7,835 nt of DNA, taken from positions 1-7,835 of IMG/VR virus record IMGVR_UViG_2713896791_000024. One strand, written 5' to 3'. This document shows positions 1 through 6,607 of this stretch, in pieces. Position numbers and translations under genes: made by a program. Position 1 is the first letter of the stretch; every line of letters begins with the position of its first letter. The notes beneath the pieces are model-generated. The model was not told the origin of the DNA and made no database searches. It saw only the letters and a program-made list of their open reading frames with translations. The stretch comes from a virus. Taxonomy: Duplodnaviria > Heunggongvirae > Uroviricota > Caudoviricetes.

Positions 1-20
1 TTTCAAAATATTCCGCTATT

Positions 21-56
21 TGCTCCCAATGCAAAACATATATTGCATTGGGAGCA
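21..56 (+). terminator. Inverted repeat with T-rich tail; candidate intrinsic terminator for a plus-strand gene ending upstream of the window, or a protein-binding palindrome
   Basis: Seen in sequence: TGCTCCCAATGCA (21-33) and its exact reverse complement TGCATTGGGAGCA (44-56), separated by 10 nt (one extra A:T pair is possible) and followed by TATTCATATTTTTGTTATT. On the minus strand no T-run follows the stem, so it is unlikely to terminate the 184..489 ORF. Confidence 0.35.
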
Positions 57-183
57 TATTCATATTTTTGTTATTATTGTATGAAATCGTCTCATGTACA
101 CGGTCCTTTTTTCGCCGAAAACTGATATTACTTTAATCAAAAGTTGACGTGCCAGATTCGAAGTAAATTTATAAAATATCAAA

Positions 184-489
184 TCAATATACATTTTGCA
201 CCTTCGAGATAGTAATGACTGTTACTGTAACATGAGTTACAAACAGCTTCATACCCAGAGCTACTGATGTATCAACTCGATTCAACAATACCCGATATTT
301 ATTCCATGCCTCCAGCAACGATCTTTCTTCCTCCGTTGCGATTTCCAGATCTACAGCATCCTGCAGTGGCGCAATATACTCACTGAATTCCTGGATGTAG
401 AACTGTGTGGTGACGGTCTTCCAGCCATTCAGCTCCTGCTGTATCGAAGCATACCAGGCTATTTCAATATCGCTATGCTGCGGCAGCAT
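184..489 (-). CDS. Small ORF (101 aa) carrying a tail fibre assembly (Tfa) C-terminal motif; probable remnant or paralogue of a second tfa 3' end
   Basis: Residues ~38-76 ([40 protein letters not shown]) match the C-terminal region of the tfa product at 3002..3577 (36 of 40 residues by eye). At DNA level 265..386 aligns with 3038..3159 at about 105 of 122 positions (manual alignment), in direct orientation. ATG at 489 is immediately preceded by an in-frame stop; an AAGGGG Shine-Dalgarno-like motif lies only 3 nt upstream. The N-terminal 37 aa and C-terminal 25 aa do not resemble Tfa. Confidence 0.45.
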
Positions 490-545
490 TTAACCCCTTG
501 TAATTCATCGCCATAATTGATTTAATTCACAAATAAAACTATAAC

Positions 546-1214
546 ATGGTGAAATTAATGAAAAAAAACACAGATGATGGGGCTAAAATTTACACACCAC
601 TTACCCTAAAGCTTTATGACTGGTGGGTTTTGGGAGTATCAAATCGGCTTGCATGGGGATGTCCTACAAAGGAACACCTTCTTCCACACTTTCTGGAACA
701 TTTAGGTAACAACCATCTGGATATTGGTGTTGGAACTGGGTTTTACCTTACTCACGTACCTGAGAGTAGTCTGATATCTTTAATGGATTTGAACGAAGCT
801 AGCCTGAACGCGGCATCTACAAGGGCTGGGGAATCAAAAATTAAACATAAAATTAACCATGATGTTTTTGAACCTTATCCCGCGGCGTTACATGGTCAAT
901 TTGATTCCATTTCCATGTTTTACCTTCTTCACTGCCTGCCTGGAAATATATCTACAAAAAGCTGTGTAATACGCAATGCGGCGCAGGCCTTAACTGACGA
1001 TGGAACTCTATACGGAGCCACAATTCTTGGCGATGGAGTTGTGCACAATAGCTTCGGTCAAAAACTGATGCGCATTTACAATCAGAAAGGCATCTTTTCA
1101 AACACAAAAGATTCCGAAGAAGGCTTAACACATATACTCTCAGAGCATTTCGAGAATGTTAAAACCAAGGTTCAAGGTACTGTAGTAATGTTTTCCGCTT
1201 CAGGGAAAAAATAG
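546..1214 (+). CDS. Class I SAM-dependent methyltransferase, probably small-molecule type (UbiE/COQ5-like fold), substrate unknown
   Basis: 222-aa ORF with Rossmann-fold methyltransferase motifs read from the translation: motif I LDIGVGTG, acidic post-I LMDLN, motif II FDSISMFYLLHCL, motif III LTDDGTLYGATI. N-terminal YDWW...S...W pattern resembles the UbiE-family signature. No DPPY/NPPY motif, so probably not an N6-adenine DNA methyltransferase. Start is uncertain: ATG at 546 lacks an obvious Shine-Dalgarno, ATG at 558 has GGTGA 5 nt upstream. Visibly more AT-rich than the tail genes. Family assignment is from memory, not a search. Confidence 0.7.
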   Translation: MVKLMKKNTDDGAKIYTPLTLKLYDWWVLGVSNRLAWGCPTKEHLLPHFLEHLGNNHLDIGVGTGFYLTHVPESSLISLMDLNEASLNAASTRAGESKIKHKINHDVFEPYPAALHGQFDSISMFYLLHCLPGNISTKSCVIRNAAQALTDDGTLYGATILGDGVVHNSFGQKLMRIYNQKGIFSNTKDSEEGLTHILSEHFENVKTKVQGTVVMFSASGKK

Positions 1215-1220
1215 CATCCA

Positions 1221-1261
1221 ACCGCAGCACGTTCTTGCATAAGGCGTGTCTGCGGTTTTTC
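1221..1261 (+). terminator. Candidate Rho-independent terminator downstream of the methyltransferase gene
   Basis: ACCGCAGCACG (1221-1231) pairs with CGTGTCTGCGGT (1245-1256) with one bulged T, followed by TTTTT (1256-1260); begins 7 nt after the TAG stop at 1212-1214. Confidence 0.5.
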
Positions 1262-1579
1262 AACTATTCAGATACATCACTCCCATCACATTCATTCCTC
1301 CGCATCATAGGCATATAGGCTATATCACCTTGATATTTTTCTTCTTCAGATAAAAACTGTTATCTATGTATACTTTTAAACCCAATCCGTGTAGAGTCTC
1401 TGCATAAGATAGTTTGCAGTTGCCACTTCAGCTTGCGCCATAAACCGCCTGATTTTTGCCGCCACCTGTTAGCATTCCTGTATACCTGAAACGACAATGT
1501 TTATCTACGAACTTTAAGAACACCCAGGATAAAAATTGTCAACTATATCATATATAACACATTACTAATTCGAGGCTAT

Positions 1580-1693
1580 ATGAACAGCATACTGATAATC
1601 ACTTCGCTCCTTATCATATTCAGCATTTTTAGTCATGCTCTAATAAAATTAGGGATTGGCATATCCAATAACCCAGACAAAACCGATGTATAA
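1580..1693 (+). CDS. Candidate 37-codon small hydrophobic protein (single predicted transmembrane helix) in the leader upstream of the ydfK-like gene
   Basis: ATG 1580, TAA 1691-1693; translation [41 protein letters not shown] at 1572-1575 lies 4 nt upstream of the ATG. Below the size cutoff of the supplied ORF track. AT-rich DNA readily yields Ile/Leu/Phe-rich ORFs by chance, so this is tentative. Confidence 0.3.
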
Positions 1694-1761
1694 GTCAACA
1701 TATCCTGAATCAGACATACAATATCGCAATGAAAATCAATAATATTTTAAGGAATATCTTC

Positions 1762-1995
1762 ATGAAATCAAAAGACACCCTAAAGTGGTTCCCTGCGCAG
1801 CTTCCTGAAGTAAGAATTATCCTAGGGGATGCTGTAGTGGAAGTAGCAAAACAGGGAAGACCTATCAATACCAGAACATTGCTTGATTACATTGAAGGAA
1901 ACATAAAGAAAAAGTCATGGCTGGATAACAAAGAATTATTACAAACAGCGATATCAGTTCTTAAAGACAACAAAAATTTAAATGGTAAAATGTAA
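1762..1995 (+). CDS. ydfK: YnaE/YdfK-family small protein (the cold-shock-induced small proteins encoded beside pinR/pinQ in E. coli K-12 Rac and Qin prophages)
   Basis: 77-aa product MKSKDTLKWFPAQLPEVRIILGDAVVEVAKQGRPINTRTLLDYIEGNIKKKSWLDNKELLQTAISVLKDNKNLNGKM. I chose the ATG at 1762 (AAGGAA Shine-Dalgarno at 1749-1754) over the upstream in-frame ATG at 1729. Immediately upstream of, and co-oriented with, a pin gene, as in the K-12 ydfK-pinQ and pinR-ynaE neighbourhoods. Family and gene order are recalled from memory. Confidence 0.7.
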   Translation: MKSKDTLKWFPAQLPEVRIILGDAVVEVAKQGRPINTRTLLDYIEGNIKKKSWLDNKELLQTAISVLKDNKNLNGKM

Positions 1996-2224
1996 TATAA
2001 TAAACTTACTTTTTTATCATTTTTCCACTTTAACAACATTTTGCTCCACTTTTCCACGACCAAACAACTTGAAATCTGGTTAAAATAACACGCAACACTA
2101 TTCTTCTTCCTTGAGTCCGCCCGGAACTCGAAAAACAAACCGAGTTAAGGCCATTTTTCACAAAATCGATTTTGGGTCTCACCAAAATTACGGGGTTGCA
2201 TACGCATTCGTTTATTTTCGAACG

Positions 2225-2288
2225 TGTACATACAAATATGTACAAAAATAATCAAAATTATTTTCTGAGATGCATTATGATATGTACA
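2225..2288. promoter_or_regulatory. Cluster of TGTACA-containing palindromic sites upstream of pin; candidate operator or promoter-overlapping binding sites
   Basis: TGTACATA-caaa-TATGTACA at 2225-2244 is a perfect 8-4-8 inverted repeat; ATATGTACA recurs at 2280-2288, 44 bp after the copy at 2236-2244. All lie 25-90 bp upstream of the pin ATG at 2314. Function is inferred only. Confidence 0.3.
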
Positions 2289-2313
2289 CCAATTTCGTAT
2301 AGAAGATCTCACT

Positions 2314-2904
2314 ATGTCTCGAATTTATGCTTACTGTCGGGTATCAACTCTGGAACAGACAACCAAAAATCAACGTCGGGAAATCGAAAGTGCAGGTTTT
2401 AACATCAAATCTCAGCAAATAATTGAAGAACAAATTAGCGGCTCAGCAGCAACCAGTGAGCGTCCTGGTTTTAACCAGTTGCTTGATCGACTGAAAAGAG
2501 GTGATGCATTGATTGTCACAAAACTGGATCGCCTCGGTTGTAATCCAATGGATATCAGTAAAACGGTGGAACAACTGACCAAAGCAGGTATCAAAGTGCA
2601 TTGCTTAGCATTGGGGGGCGTTGACCTGACCAGTCCACCTGGAAAAATGATGATGCAAGTAATTTCAGCAGTCGCTGAATTTGAGCGAGACCTTTTACTT
2701 GAGCGTACTCATTCAGGGATATTAAGAGCACGGGGCGCAGGAAAGCGATTTGGTCGCCCACCTGTGTTAAATGATGAACAAATACAGAGGGTACTAGAGC
2801 AAATTAAGTCAGGTATAAATATAAGTGACATTGCCCAAGAATTCAAAACCTCGCGGCAAACCATTTTAAGAGCTAAAGCAAAAAATCAGACACCTGATAT
2901 ATAA
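2314..2904 (+). CDS. pin: Serine recombinase of the resolvase/invertase family (Pin-like DNA invertase), with Cys at the position of a conserved catalytic Arg
   Basis: 196-aa ORF. N-terminal catalytic domain with YCRVSTLEQ (Ser11 aligning to the Ser10 nucleophile of gamma-delta/Tn3 resolvase) and [10 protein letters not shown]; C-terminal helix-turn-helix region ([10 protein letters not shown]...[20 protein letters not shown]). The usual DRLGR motif reads DRLGCN (Cys76, TGT at 2539-2541). Convergent with tfa, as in K-12 pinQ-tfaQ. Confidence 0.9.
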
Positions 2905-2908
2905 AAAT

Positions 2909-2936
2909 AATCTCGGTGTGAGATTCCTTACGTTTT
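2909..2936 (+). terminator. Weak hairpin plus T-tract after pin; possible terminator
   Basis: AATCTC (2909-2914) pairs with GAGATT (2920-2925) around a 5-nt loop; a TTTT tract follows at 2933-2936, 7 nt after the stem. AT-rich short stem, so weak. Confidence 0.25.
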
Positions 2937-3001
2937 CCAAGCCCCCCTTCCTAGCCTTAAATGGAAAGATACTTCTAATTATAGAATTTATATATCTTAC
3001 C

Positions 3002-3577
3002 CTACGGTAGGGCTGGCCATTCAATATCCGGTGCAGTTGATGTATCAACACGGTTCAGCAACACCCGATACTTTTTCCAGGCTTCCAGCAACAAGGTTTC
3101 TTCCTCCGTTGCGATCTCCAGATCCACAGCATCCTGAAGCGGCGCAATATGCTCACTGGCTACCTGCATCAGGCTGTTTTTTGTTTCTTCCGCCTCCCGG
3201 ATCCGGAACAGTTTTTCTGCTTCCGTATCCTTCACCCAGGCTGTGCCGTTCCACTTCTGATATTCCCCTCCCGGCGATAACCAGGTAACATTTTCCGGTA
3301 ACGGACCGAGTTCAGAAATAAATAACGCGTCGCCGGAAGCCACGTCATAAACCGTTTTACCCCGATGATCTTCAACGAGATGCCACGATGCCTCATCACT
3401 GTTGAAAACAGCCACGAAGCCTGCCGGAATATCTGGCGGTGCAATATCGATACTGTTTGCTGGCAGACCTGTATGAGGCGGAATATATGCGTCACCTTCA
3501 CCAATAAATTCATTAGTTCCTGCCAGCAGATTATAAATTTTTATGGTCCGTGGTTGTTCACTCATTCTGAATGCCAT
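3002..3577 (-). CDS. tfa: Tail fibre assembly protein (lambda Tfa family)
   Basis: 191-aa product beginning [41 protein letters not shown], matching lambda Tfa as I recall it over nearly its whole length. ATG at 3575-3577 overlaps the stf stop codon (3577-3579) by one nucleotide (TAATG on the minus strand), implying translational coupling. Confidence 0.93.
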
Positions 3578-6492
3578 TATGCAAGCCTCACAATGTAGTT
3601 AAATGCGATGTTTTTGACAGTGTTTTCCGCGTTACCAGCAGCGTTAACGGTGATGGTGTGTCCATGTGAGCCAATCGCAACAGAGTGCGTATGAGCACCA
3701 ATACCGACAGTATGTGCGTGAGCACCTGCAGATGCAGCTGTGCCGCTGACACTATGAGTGTGCGCTCCTGCAGCACTTGTATTCACACTGGCCGCAGACA
3801 CTACCTTATGTACTGACCCATTTTGTGACCACTGGCTGACTGCTGATGCGCCTGTGACACTATGAGTATGGTTTCCGGCACTTGCGGCTGTACCGCTCAC
3901 ACTGTGCGTATGCGCCCCGGTGTTATTCGTGGATTTAGTGCCGTAATCAAACGACGATGTGGTTTTCGTCCCCAAATCCGTACTGGATGCACTGGCGCTG
4001 TGGGTGTGCGATTTAATGCCGTCCTGTTCCTGAGACAATACGGCCCGACCACTGGCAGGTTTGCCCTTAATCGTCCAGCCACGCATATCAGGGATCACGC
4101 CTGACGGATAAGCGGTTGCAAGTTTCGGGTAAGCGGATTTGTCAAAAGTCTGCCCCTGCATCAGGGCATAACCAGACGGAACGGTATCTGATGGCCACGG
4201 GATTGGTGCGCCAGGCGGATAAAACTGCTCTGATGGTGTATAGAGTGAATAAACTGTACCGTCCGTTAACCCTTCCGGCTTATTAGCAGAATATGCTGGT
4301 GACGTATGAATAGTCACGCTGGCATTACTGGTATAATCCCATTGAATATTTACACCAGTCGCATAATTTCCGATTGCAACGTAAATATCGTAAGTATCAC
4401 CAGATGTATTGACCCAGGCAAAATTTGTAAACCCTGTCGATGTGCGCTGCCATAAAGCACCAGTAATCCCCTTCGGATTACCATTACCTGCACGCAAAAC
4501 AAGTTCAGATATACCTGCCTGTTGAGGTGACCCCACGTTAAATCCCGCGCCACCAATCAACGTAATTGAAACAACAGAACTCGCCTGTGGCATGGTTACC
4601 GTTGCTAATTTGAACCAACCAGCACCACCGCTGAATGACATTGTTGTTGAGTTAAGCGTACCAATATCTTTCGGCGTCAGTGTTATATCCGCTGAAAGCG
4701 CCTTACCATTCACCTTACGGGCAGAAGGTACCCGACCATTCGCATTATCATTAGCTGCTTTCACTGCTTTCGGTGTCGCGGCAAGCGTTTCAGATGCGCT
4801 GTTGGTTGCACTACTGAGCTGGACAATTCCTTTTTGTGCTGTCGTAGCGTCCTGAGCAGTATATTTCCCGTTAGCAAGGTCATAGGCTGCCTTTACCGAC
4901 TTTGGCGTTGCCGCCAGCATTTCAGATGTGCTGTTGGTCGCGCTGCTGAGCTGAACTATCCCTTTCTGTGCTGTCGTTGCATCCTGTGCGGTGTATTTCC
5001 CGTTAGCCAGCTCATACGCGGCCTTAACGGCTTTTGGCGTTGCCGCCAGTGACTCGGAAGTGCTGTTAGTCGCACTGCTGAGCTGTACTATCCCCTTTTT
5101 CGTCGTGCTCGCATCCTCAAGCGCCACGGCGGATGCAATATCCTCTGCCCGTTTTGCCGCTGTCTCGGCGCGCGTTGCCGCGGATTCCGCCGTACTTTTG
5201 CTCTGAGCTGCCGCCGTCGCACTGCCAGCTGCCTCTGTCGCCTTCGTGGATGCCGTCGTGGCGCTGCCCTTTGCTGCTGACGCCTGTCTGGTCGCCTCAT
5301 CTTTTGAAGCAGACGCAGATGATGCCGATGACGCCGCCGAACTGGCGGACGATGCGGCAGCCGTTTTTGAGGATTCTGCGCTGGTTTCCGACGCTTTCGC
5401 GTTCGTCTCGGATGTCTTCGCTGCGGAAGCAGACCTCGCTGCTGCGCTGGCCTGTTCAGTGGCTTCGCCAGCCTTCGTTGTGGCTGTTGAAGCGGACGAT
5501 GCGGCGCTTTCTGCCGATTTTCCGGCAGCGGTGGCACTGGCTGAGGCCTGCCCGGCACTTGTTGACGCGGCACTGGCAGACGACGCAGCCGCTGTTTTTG
5601 AGCCTGCCGCAGCTGAGGCGCTCTGTCCCGCTGCCGTCTCAGAAGACCTGGCGTTCGTCTCGGACGTTTTTGCCGCCTTCGCGGAATTTGCTGCCGCCGT
5701 TGCCGAGGAAGCTGCGCTACTGGCGCTCGAGGATGCGTTCGTTTCTGATGATTTTGCCGCCTCTTTTGAAGCCGACGCATCCCGGGCTGAGGTGGCAGCT
5801 TCTGACGCTTTCGTGGTCGCGGTGGATGCAGAAGTGGCGGCTGATTGTTGTGACGCTGCAGCATTCGTTTCTGACGTTTTCGCGGCAGCGGCACTGGTAG
5901 CTGCCGCGCTTTTTGAGGACTCTGCAGCGGCAGCACTTTTTTCCGCTTCAGTGGCCTTTGTTGATGCCGTTCCTGCGCTGGAAGACGCTGACTGAGCCGA
6001 CGAAGCGGCCTGTCCGGCTGACGTGCTGGCTGCACGTGCTGAATCTGCAGCATCAGTCGCATGGGTTGCCGCCTCACGGGCAGATGTGCCGGCATCACTG
6101 GCTGACTTCTTCGCGGCTGCCGTGTTCTGTGCCACCACGGACGCGTTACGCGCCACCTCTTCCACCATCTGTTCAAAACGGCGCAGTGCCTCCGGACGGG
6201 CATCATCCTCCGTCATGGCACCGAGAAAATCATTCAGCGTACCGGGTTGAGAATCTTCATACACGGTGATGGTCCCGGCATGTGACGGCGGGAATCCTTC
6301 CACCAACAGAATAACGCTGTACTGCCCGTACTCAACGTCCATGCTGTAACGCCCGGCTTCATCCGGATTTTCTGAGGCCAGCGTGTTCACCACCACCGTG
6401 GTGCTGTTACGTTTTGCTTTCAGCTGGATTGTGCAGTTCTGTACCGGTTTTCCTGTGCCGTCTTTCAGTACACCTGAAATCTTTACTGCCAT
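3577..6492 (-). CDS. stf: Side tail fibre protein (lambda Stf family), 971 aa
   Basis: Starts [26 protein letters not shown], matching the lambda Stf N-terminus as I recall it. Contains a long Ala/Ser/Thr-rich fibrous region, three tandem 44-aa repeats ([27 protein letters not shown]...), and a C-terminal tip with repeated His-x-His motifs. Start is placed at the ATG at 6490-6492 (GGGGTGA Shine-Dalgarno-like motif just upstream); the ORF-track extension to 6612 reads through the N-gap and the lom terminator and is an artefact. An identical start context is duplicated after the gap at 6567-6569. Confidence 0.9.
4750..5097 (-). repeat. Three tandem copies (two full, one partial) of a 132-bp unit inside stf encoding a 44-aa phage tail fibre repeat
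   Basis: The string CTGAGCTG recurs at 4814, 4946 and 5078 on the plus strand (period 132 bp). Protein repeats [44 protein letters not shown] occur three times, the last diverging after KAVKAA. Confidence 0.8.
5100..6000 (-). repeat. Low-complexity Ala/Ser/Thr-rich region of stf with degenerate internal repeats (AAKTSETNA-type)
   Basis: The translation contains several [18 protein letters not shown]-like units within a roughly 300-aa Ala/Ser/Thr-rich stretch. GCN-rich codons generate long artefactual ORFs in other frames on both strands. Confidence 0.75.
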
Positions 6493-6503
6493 ATTCACCC
6501 CAC

Positions 6504-6553
6504 NNNNNNNNNNNNNNNNNNNNNNNNNNNNNNNNNNNNNNNNNNNNNNNNNN
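6504..6553. other. Scaffold gap (50 N) flanked by a 27-bp exact duplication; probable unresolved contig overlap rather than missing sequence
   Basis: AAATCTTTACTGCCATATTCACCCCAC occurs at 6477-6503 immediately before the N-run and again at 6554-6580 immediately after. Collapsing the duplication leaves about 64 bp between the lom stop and the stf start, close to the lambda lom-stf spacing as I recall it. Confidence 0.8.
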
Positions 6554-6579
6554 AAATCTTTACTGCCATATTCACCCCA

Positions 6580-6607
6580 CAAAAAAGCCCGCCTGAACCG
6601 GCGGGCT
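6580..6607 (-). terminator. Rho-independent terminator downstream of lom, immediately upstream of the stf ribosome-binding site
   Basis: Minus strand reads AGCCCGCC-GGTTCA-GGCGGGCT (8-bp GC-rich stem, 6-nt loop) followed by TTTTTTG; plus-strand stem arms at 6586-6593 and 6600-6607, A-run at 6581-6586. Confidence 0.75.

Follow-up and report, generated by a model that had tools for sequence, protein, structure and literature searches.

The window analysed here is a 7,835-nt stretch of tailed-phage DNA (IMG/VR record IMGVR_UViG_2713896791_000024) that carries tail genes on its minus strand and a group of accessory genes on its plus strand. An intact tfa gene (3002–3577, minus strand) encodes a 191-aa tail-fibre assembly protein of the lambda/TfaR/TfaQ type (Caudo_TAP, 148.7 bits, profile positions 1–130), and the sequence is 96.4–96.6% identical to lambda orf-194 over 3015–3600. 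Upstream of tfa lies the side tail fibre gene stf (3577–6492, minus strand), identified from the open reading frame list and from PGAP, which in an identical genome describes the 971-aa product as a “prophage tail fiber N-terminal domain-containing protein”. Within stf there are three tandem 132-nt units at 4736–5131, the later ones with 77% and 62% identity to the first, and the Ala/Ser-rich region contains many shorter internal repeats. A little upstream of where stf starts, 50 consecutive N (6504–6553) lie between the two copies of an exact 27-bp duplicate (6477–6503 = 6554–6580), and 6477–6580 has the look of a gap between scaffolded contigs whose ends overlap. To the left of this gap the window is 99.97% identical to the O103:H2 strain 12009; to the right the alignment is limited to 161 bp (96%) and the lom/J genes are different, so that stf and the lom-J part are only tentatively linked.

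The accessory genes begin on the other side of tfa. A segment carrying pin, ydfK and ynaM (1256–3014, plus strand; Pfam YnaM, Resolvase and HTH_7) behaves as an independent insertion/deletion variant. It comprises ynaM (1580–1693; Pfam YnaM), ydfK (1762–1995) and pin (2314–2904), all on the plus strand, the last encoding an intact 196-aa Pin-family serine invertase (Resolvase, 129.9 bits; HTH_7). Next to it is a gene for a class I SAM-dependent methyltransferase (546–1214, plus strand; matches to Methyltransf_12/23/25/11, phrog_2132 at 518 bits, and PGAP), which is the intact counterpart, 98% identical, of the K-12 pseudogene ybcY. A hairpin located 3′ of the methyltransferase gene (1222–1260, plus strand) coincides with the left junction of the pin segment. 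In Rac, Qin and phage mEp460_ev081, which have no methyltransferase gene, the pin module ends distally in the same hairpin, and window 1205/1218–3745 is ~95% identical to the right ends of these three elements. It is probably the left-hand homology that is used in gain or loss of the pin segment. Beyond the methyltransferase gene, and separated from it by a divergent 56-bp spacer (490–545), lies a 101-codon open reading frame (184–489, minus strand) which Caudo_TAP, PGAP and identity to K-12 mark as a tfaX-like remnant, a 5′-truncated tail-fibre assembly pseudogene.

A scan of window 1–3100 for promoters and terminators gave counts at the level of shuffled sequence, and a sub-threshold match to Rfam CssrB, a Shigella chromosomal sRNA, was seen at 1223–1360 (minus strand, 28.5 bits, E = 0.004, gathering threshold 76). 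A defence role for the block was considered and rejected, as PADLOC returned no match for the remnant, ynaM, ydfK or pin and only a marginal one for the methyltransferase (E = 7e-4).

The tfa 3′ end is present twice in direct orientation

BLASTN of window 1–600 against 2901–3600 returned a single significant match, in which 265–385 aligns with 3038–3158 on the same strand at 105 of 121 positions (87%), gap-free, with E = 5e-36. A repeat search of the window recovered the same pair (family D2, offset 2773). All other 121-mers of the window compared with 265–385 share a mean of 30.7 positions (sd 5.1, best 51), and the match is therefore far above chance. The longest perfectly identical stretch between the two copies is 19 bp. 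Both lie in frame of minus-strand open reading frames: the right copy (3038–3158, minus strand) inside the intact tfa, and the left copy (265–385, minus strand), which encodes the conserved C-terminal Tfa domain in 39 codons, inside the 101-codon frame at 184–489.

A preliminary description of this DNA had proposed that a segment of ~122 bp from the tfa 3′ end occurs twice in the same orientation, and that the DNA between the copies is AT-rich and on the strand opposite to the tail genes. The BLASTN comparison, which that description had suggested as a check, bears out the repeat at a length of 121 bp. The four genes between the copies are all on the plus strand, and the base composition agrees as well, with GC of 0.32–0.44 over window 1–3000 vs. 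0.46–0.64 in the tail genes. The further proposal that the repeat brackets the whole accessory block does not hold. The phage accessory arm also includes an alpha/beta hydrolase gene and ompT, and these are located outside the left copy both in the source genome and in phage Turner.

Both copies also fall within matches to Rfam IS009 (RF02111), listed as a candidate sRNA: 3036–3234 (minus strand, 224.4 bits) spans the right copy, and 263–466 (minus strand, 107.6 bits) spans the left one at a gathering threshold of 117. Since both matches lie in tfa coding or formerly coding sequence, the family may represent the conserved gene end rather than a separate RNA. We did not favour an RNA-element reading of the repeat, as IS009 exceeds its threshold on the tfa copy only, where it coincides with conserved coding sequence.

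Two tfa alleles and not a duplication

The two copies differ at 16 nucleotides, distributed over 15 of the 39 codons; 11 of these codons are synonymous and 4 change the amino acid. Similarity stops sharply at 385/386, and the 104 nt farther 5′ in the remnant are unrelated to tfa. Because the differences are mainly synonymous, the copies appear to derive from two genes that diverged while both were functional, that is, from distinct tfa alleles. A duplication was rejected on the same grounds, with synonymous change in 11 of the 15 differing codons and unrelated sequences 5′ of the repeat. Tfa proteins, as North et al. 2019 are summarised in PMC9608196, combine a variable N-terminal fibre-binding domain with a conserved C-terminal multimerisation domain. 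The 121-bp repeat is thus best read, from its sequence, as the conserved C-terminal coding segment common to two otherwise unrelated tfa alleles.

An insertion or transposable element flanked by a target-site duplication was also considered and set aside: the repeat is 121 bp long, 13% diverged and mostly synonymous in its differences, unlike short identical repeats. Profile and repeat searches of the window detected neither a transposase nor terminal inverted repeats flanking the block.

The locus corresponds to the right end of DLP12

Window 1–3600 has 100% identity to many STEC chromosomes of O103:H2, O45:H2 and related types. Its neighbours in O103:H2 strain 12009 are an alpha/beta hydrolase gene, ompT, envY, ybcH and nfrA; this is the right end of the prophage at the DLP12 site. 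The layout of DLP12 in K-12, tfaD–ybcY′–tfaX–appY–ompT, has the same order and orientation, and window 290–1255 is 98% identical to K-12 ybcY–tfaX (b0562–b0563). Taken together, the identity and the shared layout identify the open reading frame at 184–489 as a tfaX homologue, and the repeat itself corresponds to the known tfaD/tfaX pair of DLP12.

The two loci share the ompT/envY/nfrA neighbourhood, the gene order, the orientations and the 5′ truncation point of tfaX. They differ in that K-12 DLP12 lacks the 1,759-bp pin-ydfK-ynaM segment and has ~36 bp instead, in that ybcY is a pseudogene and tfaX has an in-frame stop but keeps its native tfa 3′ end, and in that K-12 has appY after tfaX where the window type has the alpha/beta hydrolase gene, the alleles diverging distal to 313/314. 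Past the remnant, the distal cargo (window 1–183 and L001 7516–9000) is the alpha/beta hydrolase gene followed by ompT, and appY occupies this position in K-12 and in phage PhiR68_2. A strong hairpin is located at 21–56, after the hydrolase gene. ompT is also carried by the plaque-forming lambdoid phages Turner, PhiR26_1 and 2G7b.

The remnant decays as a pseudogene

The match of the 184–489 frame to Caudo_TAP (PF02413; 65.4 bits, cut-off 22.1) involves only residues 30–77, aligned to profile positions 74–121 of 131. At 101 codons the frame falls short of a full-length Tfa of the lambda type, which has ~190 aa and an N-terminal fibre-binding domain, and its tfa-derived part is recognisable only over ~265–402. 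PGAP labels window 184–396 “tail fiber assembly protein, incomplete, missing N-terminus”, which is a pseudogene call. The frame is not directly downstream of a co-oriented fibre gene; its upstream neighbour, 56 bp away, is the divergent methyltransferase gene. In K-12, the spacer between ybcY and tfaX is bound by RpoD holoenzyme and H-NS (PMC3946193), and the mentions of tfaX/ybcY that we found in the literature concern promoter mapping only.

The spacer marks the 5′ truncation point of all alleles. Every remnant allele examined has the same 5′ start, which argues for one ancestral truncation, although the truncation point is placed with some uncertainty at either 386–402 or 489. Differences accumulate at the other end. 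An in-frame TGA is found in tfaX of K-12 and in the remnant of phage PhiR68_2, a 7-bp deletion in that of phage 2G7b, and frameshifts in some database alleles. The window-type remnant has lost its original final 9 codons and stop codon, and reading continues into the flanking sequence to give a fortuitous 101 codons; the native end ...RVDTSVAPDIEWLIQP (...DIEWLIQP) is retained in some database alleles. The reading frame is thus not maintained across relatives, and a shared 5′ end combined with differing 3′ lesions is the behaviour that would be expected of a decaying pseudogene.

No full-length parent of the remnant was detected by tblastn among 50,697 phage records, which yielded only fragments of up to 86 aa, and when 5.8 billion protein clusters were searched by word index for the first 49 residues of the remnant, every protein that matched was at most 86 aa long. 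In the same 50,697 phage records, the remnant-specific N-terminus is absent outside the same remnant context. In view of these results the first ~30 residues of the frame may be derived from a source other than tfa: either the full-length parent is unsampled, or these codons do not come from a tfa gene. A version of 86–88 aa makes up a separate PHROG family, phrog_2341, and is still found in plaque-forming phages. The remnant is probably without protein function; a residual role is conceivable, as a protein or as part of the promoter region of the methyltransferase gene.

Accessory cassettes reassort around tfa 3′ ends

To obtain frequencies, 5,426 complete E. coli genomes were searched for the specific junctions. 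A short form, in which the methyltransferase gene, ~36 bp and tfa follow one another with no pin, occurs in 3,289 of them, K-12 included, and a long form, in which the methyltransferase gene is followed by the ynaM/pin segment, in 317. Breakpoints 1255 and 3015 recur in three independent sequences, K-12 DLP12, PhiR26_1 and 2G7b, with ~36 bp replacing 1256–3014. Position 3015 lies 4 codons before the tfa stop, and homology to lambda begins there too.

Individual phages and prophages carry these modules in several combinations. Turner has the whole block, ompT–hydrolase–tfaX′–methyltransferase–ynaM–ydfK–pin–tfa, and PhiR26_1 resembles it but lacks the pin segment (tfa–methyltransferase–tfaX′). 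PhiR68_2 combines an appY-linked remnant with pin; we found no paper on the PhiR phages. mEp460_ev081, Rac and Qin carry only tfa-pin-ydfK-ynaM, and lambda only tfa. The gene orders stfR-tfaR-pinR-ynaE-ynaM in Rac and stfQ-tfaQ-pinQ-ydfK-ynfT in Qin, like that of mEp460_ev081, reproduce the convergent tfa/pin junction and the hairpin of the window. Unlike the window, these three elements end there at att and have neither the methyltransferase gene nor the tfaX remnant nor the direct repeat. In lambda, the b region is downstream of tfa. Lambda resembles the window in the high identity of its tfa and in having accessory genes after it, but its homology stops 4 codons before the tfa stop, its b region is a different one, and a second tfa fragment is absent.

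In 2G7b and HannyBb, a different fibre type is accompanied by a 98-bp non-coding tfa 3′ scar equal to window 3015–3112. The scar (2G7b 6284–6381, L005; HannyBb 5810–5907, L008) lies beside a non-lambda tail-fibre/chaperone set and is joined to the methyltransferase cassette in 2G7b and to the pin cassette in HannyBb. In 2G7b, two tfa scars are stacked, one on either side of the methyltransferase gene, and a functional lambda-type tfa is missing; this phage illustrates directly how replacement of a tail-fibre module leaves a tfa 3′ end behind.

These distributions bear on the origin of the repeat. The preliminary description had suggested that cargo was inserted into or next to a tfa 3′ end, with the repeat as its footprint. 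The first part has a basis in the pin segment (1256–3014), which abuts tfa with its right edge 4 codons before the stop. The repeat is a different matter, for tfa–methyltransferase–tfaX′ occurs without pin in K-12, in PhiR26_1 and in the short-form genomes, and it was therefore not made by insertion of the block. Alignment to lambda, Rac, Qin and e14, as had been recommended, found tfa without the methyltransferase–tfaX′ block in Rac, Qin and lambda.

A crossover within the conserved tfa segment

Comparison of the window with K-12 tfaX revealed 229 of 232 identical positions over 314–545 and 34 of 49 over 265–313, the distal part of the remnant in which the two alleles diverge. Distal to 313/314 the cargo differs as well, with the hydrolase gene in the window (the hydrolase-linked allele) and appY in K-12 (the appY-linked allele). 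The drop in identity at 313/314, together with the different cargo beyond it, points to a crossover inside the conserved tfa segment. As judged from these alignments, the conserved tfa 3′ end acts as a recombination joint, with one crossover mapped at 313/314.

There is experimental precedent for exchange at such sites. Lambda recombines with Rac and Qin via stf-tfa homology, Red-beta tolerates 12% divergence (PMC3945230), and acceptance of sequence diverged by 12% is described for Rad52-like recombinases (2014, PMC3945230). The present case is similar in that stf-tfa homology, a demonstrated site of exchange in that system, here contains the crossover in its conserved tfa segment. It differs in scale: the homology was ~650–700 bp there, and here it is 121 bp with a maximum identical run of 19 bp and with no recombinant between the copies. 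The hybrid junction that a deletion would produce was found in 0 of the 5,426 complete E. coli genomes (no place covering >=80%). The suggestion that recombination between the copies deletes the block and creates a hybrid tfa end is therefore not borne out, either by the genomes or by the 19-bp length of the longest identical run.

A broader conjecture, which we offer tentatively and consider possible but not probable, is that the conserved ~120-bp tfa 3′ segment serves as portable homology. It would act as a recurrent joint for exchange of accessory cargo independent of fibre type, and dead scars would be kept and stacked for the exchangeability that they confer. The cassettes concerned would be pin-ydfK-ynaM, the methyltransferase gene, and appY or hydrolase-ompT. 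One mapped crossover (313/314) and three recurrent breakpoints (3015, 3112 and 1255) are compatible with this idea and are not proof of retention.

Discussion

The data presented here argue that the open reading frame at 184–489 is a dead remnant of a second, different tfa allele, homologous to tfaX, which past module exchange would have left in a lambdoid prophage at the DLP12 site, within the accessory arm that corresponds to the b region of lambda. We assign this reading, which is based on sequence comparison, a probability of roughly 0.78. Beyond the observed identity, synteny, breakpoints, decay and distribution of the remnant, we infer an order of events and a recombination pathway. An ancestral phage would have carried stfX-tfaX followed by cargo, ompT among it. 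One illegitimate join would then have imported a different stf-tfa set together with a trailing methyltransferase gene, cutting the old tfaX in mid-gene and leaving its 3′ part as a scar. This could have happened during replacement of a tail-fibre module or after tandem lysogeny, and the data fit either. In later exchanges, homology would have been provided by the conserved tfa 3′ segment and by the hairpin that follows the methyltransferase gene; these exchanges may have swapped the distal cargo (appY vs. hydrolase, at 313/314) and have led to gain or loss of pin-ydfK-ynaM (1256–3014).

The tandem-lysogen setting can be stated as a variant of this explanation that differs only in the origin of the illegitimate join. 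Two head-to-tail prophages at one att site would have been fused by a deletion running from the accessory arm of the first phage to mid-tfa of the second. The product would be the same, with direct orientation, a 5′-truncated distal copy and cargo of two origins, and prophages at the DLP12 site are very common (PMC6379469; 3,289 plus 317 of the 5,426 genomes here). However, the methyltransferase gene and the remnant are separated by the 56-bp spacer only, with no att or int remnant between them, and the outcome is indistinguishable from replacement by recombination between co-infecting or resident phages; we regard this specific route as unlikely. An integration of the Campbell type is also improbable, in our estimate. 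Here a circle bearing a 5′-truncated tfa fragment and the methyltransferase gene, with or without pin, would have entered the tfa 3′ end through one homologous crossover. Direct copies with a truncated 5′ end on the distal one are what a single crossover yields, and a crossover within the conserved segment is documented at 313/314. Yet the short form has no recombinase or other mobility gene, a unit of methyltransferase gene plus tfa fragment was seen neither free nor at another location, the context of the remnant is constant in phage records, and the copies share no perfect run longer than 19 bp.

Two further readings, one of the segment as a whole and one of the short frame, are both highly improbable. 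The preliminary description had raised the possibility of a second tail-fibre module left from an ancestral invertible segment. In its full form, this would make the locus a relic of a Pin-driven invertible tail-fibre segment of the Mu G, P1 C or e14 P type, in which tfaX′ would be the alternative tfa′. Part of it stands, as the left copy is a remnant of a second tfa. As in those systems, an intact Pin-family serine invertase gene adjoins the tail-fibre genes and more than one tfa-related sequence is present. Systems of the Din family also have two inverted 26-bp crossover sites (pix/gix/cix) and opposite sets of stf 3′ ends and tfa, and the window has neither. A search with the real e14 pix sequence, recovered for use as a query, and with a generic gix/hix/pix consensus gave 0 matches in the window at up to 3 mismatches, and AAACCNNGGTTT-like (core-only) matches occurred singly and no more often than chance would give. 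The copies have direct, not inverted, orientation, a second or alternative stf fragment is absent, and e14 shares only 42 bp with the window. Moreover, the remnant occurs without pin in 3,289 genomes, K-12 being one, and pin without the remnant in Rac, Qin and mEp460. Given the results on crossover sites, orientation and stf, and the independent occurrence of remnant and pin, the invertible-segment reading fails. Pin at 2314–2904 is an orphan invertase, as in Rac and Qin, the window being devoid of crossover sites and of an invertible stf/tfa set. The other reading takes the short frame as a functional mini-Tfa, consisting of the C-terminal multimerisation domain alone and acting, for example, by interference with the Tfa multimers of superinfecting phages. 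It would account for the conserved C-terminal domain kept in the remnant, for a PHROG family of its own (88 residues) and for its presence in plaque-forming phages. Against it, that very domain has suffered independent inactivating lesions in several lineages, active phages included (TGA, 7-bp deletion, loss of the native end); PGAP calls the frame a pseudogene, and PADLOC has no match to it.

The remnant of a second tfa allele is an ordinary feature, already known and annotated, and it involves no new element or mechanism; outside annotation its significance is small. For annotation, the 101-codon frame is to be treated as a tfa pseudogene homologous to tfaX rather than a gene. At least three cassettes, each exchanged independently, make up the “accessory block”, in the region of a DLP12-type phage that is equivalent to the b region. 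The locus provides a natural example of how the conserved part of tfa that encodes the C-terminus serves lambdoid phages as a mosaic joint, in agreement with experiments on relaxed homologous recombination.
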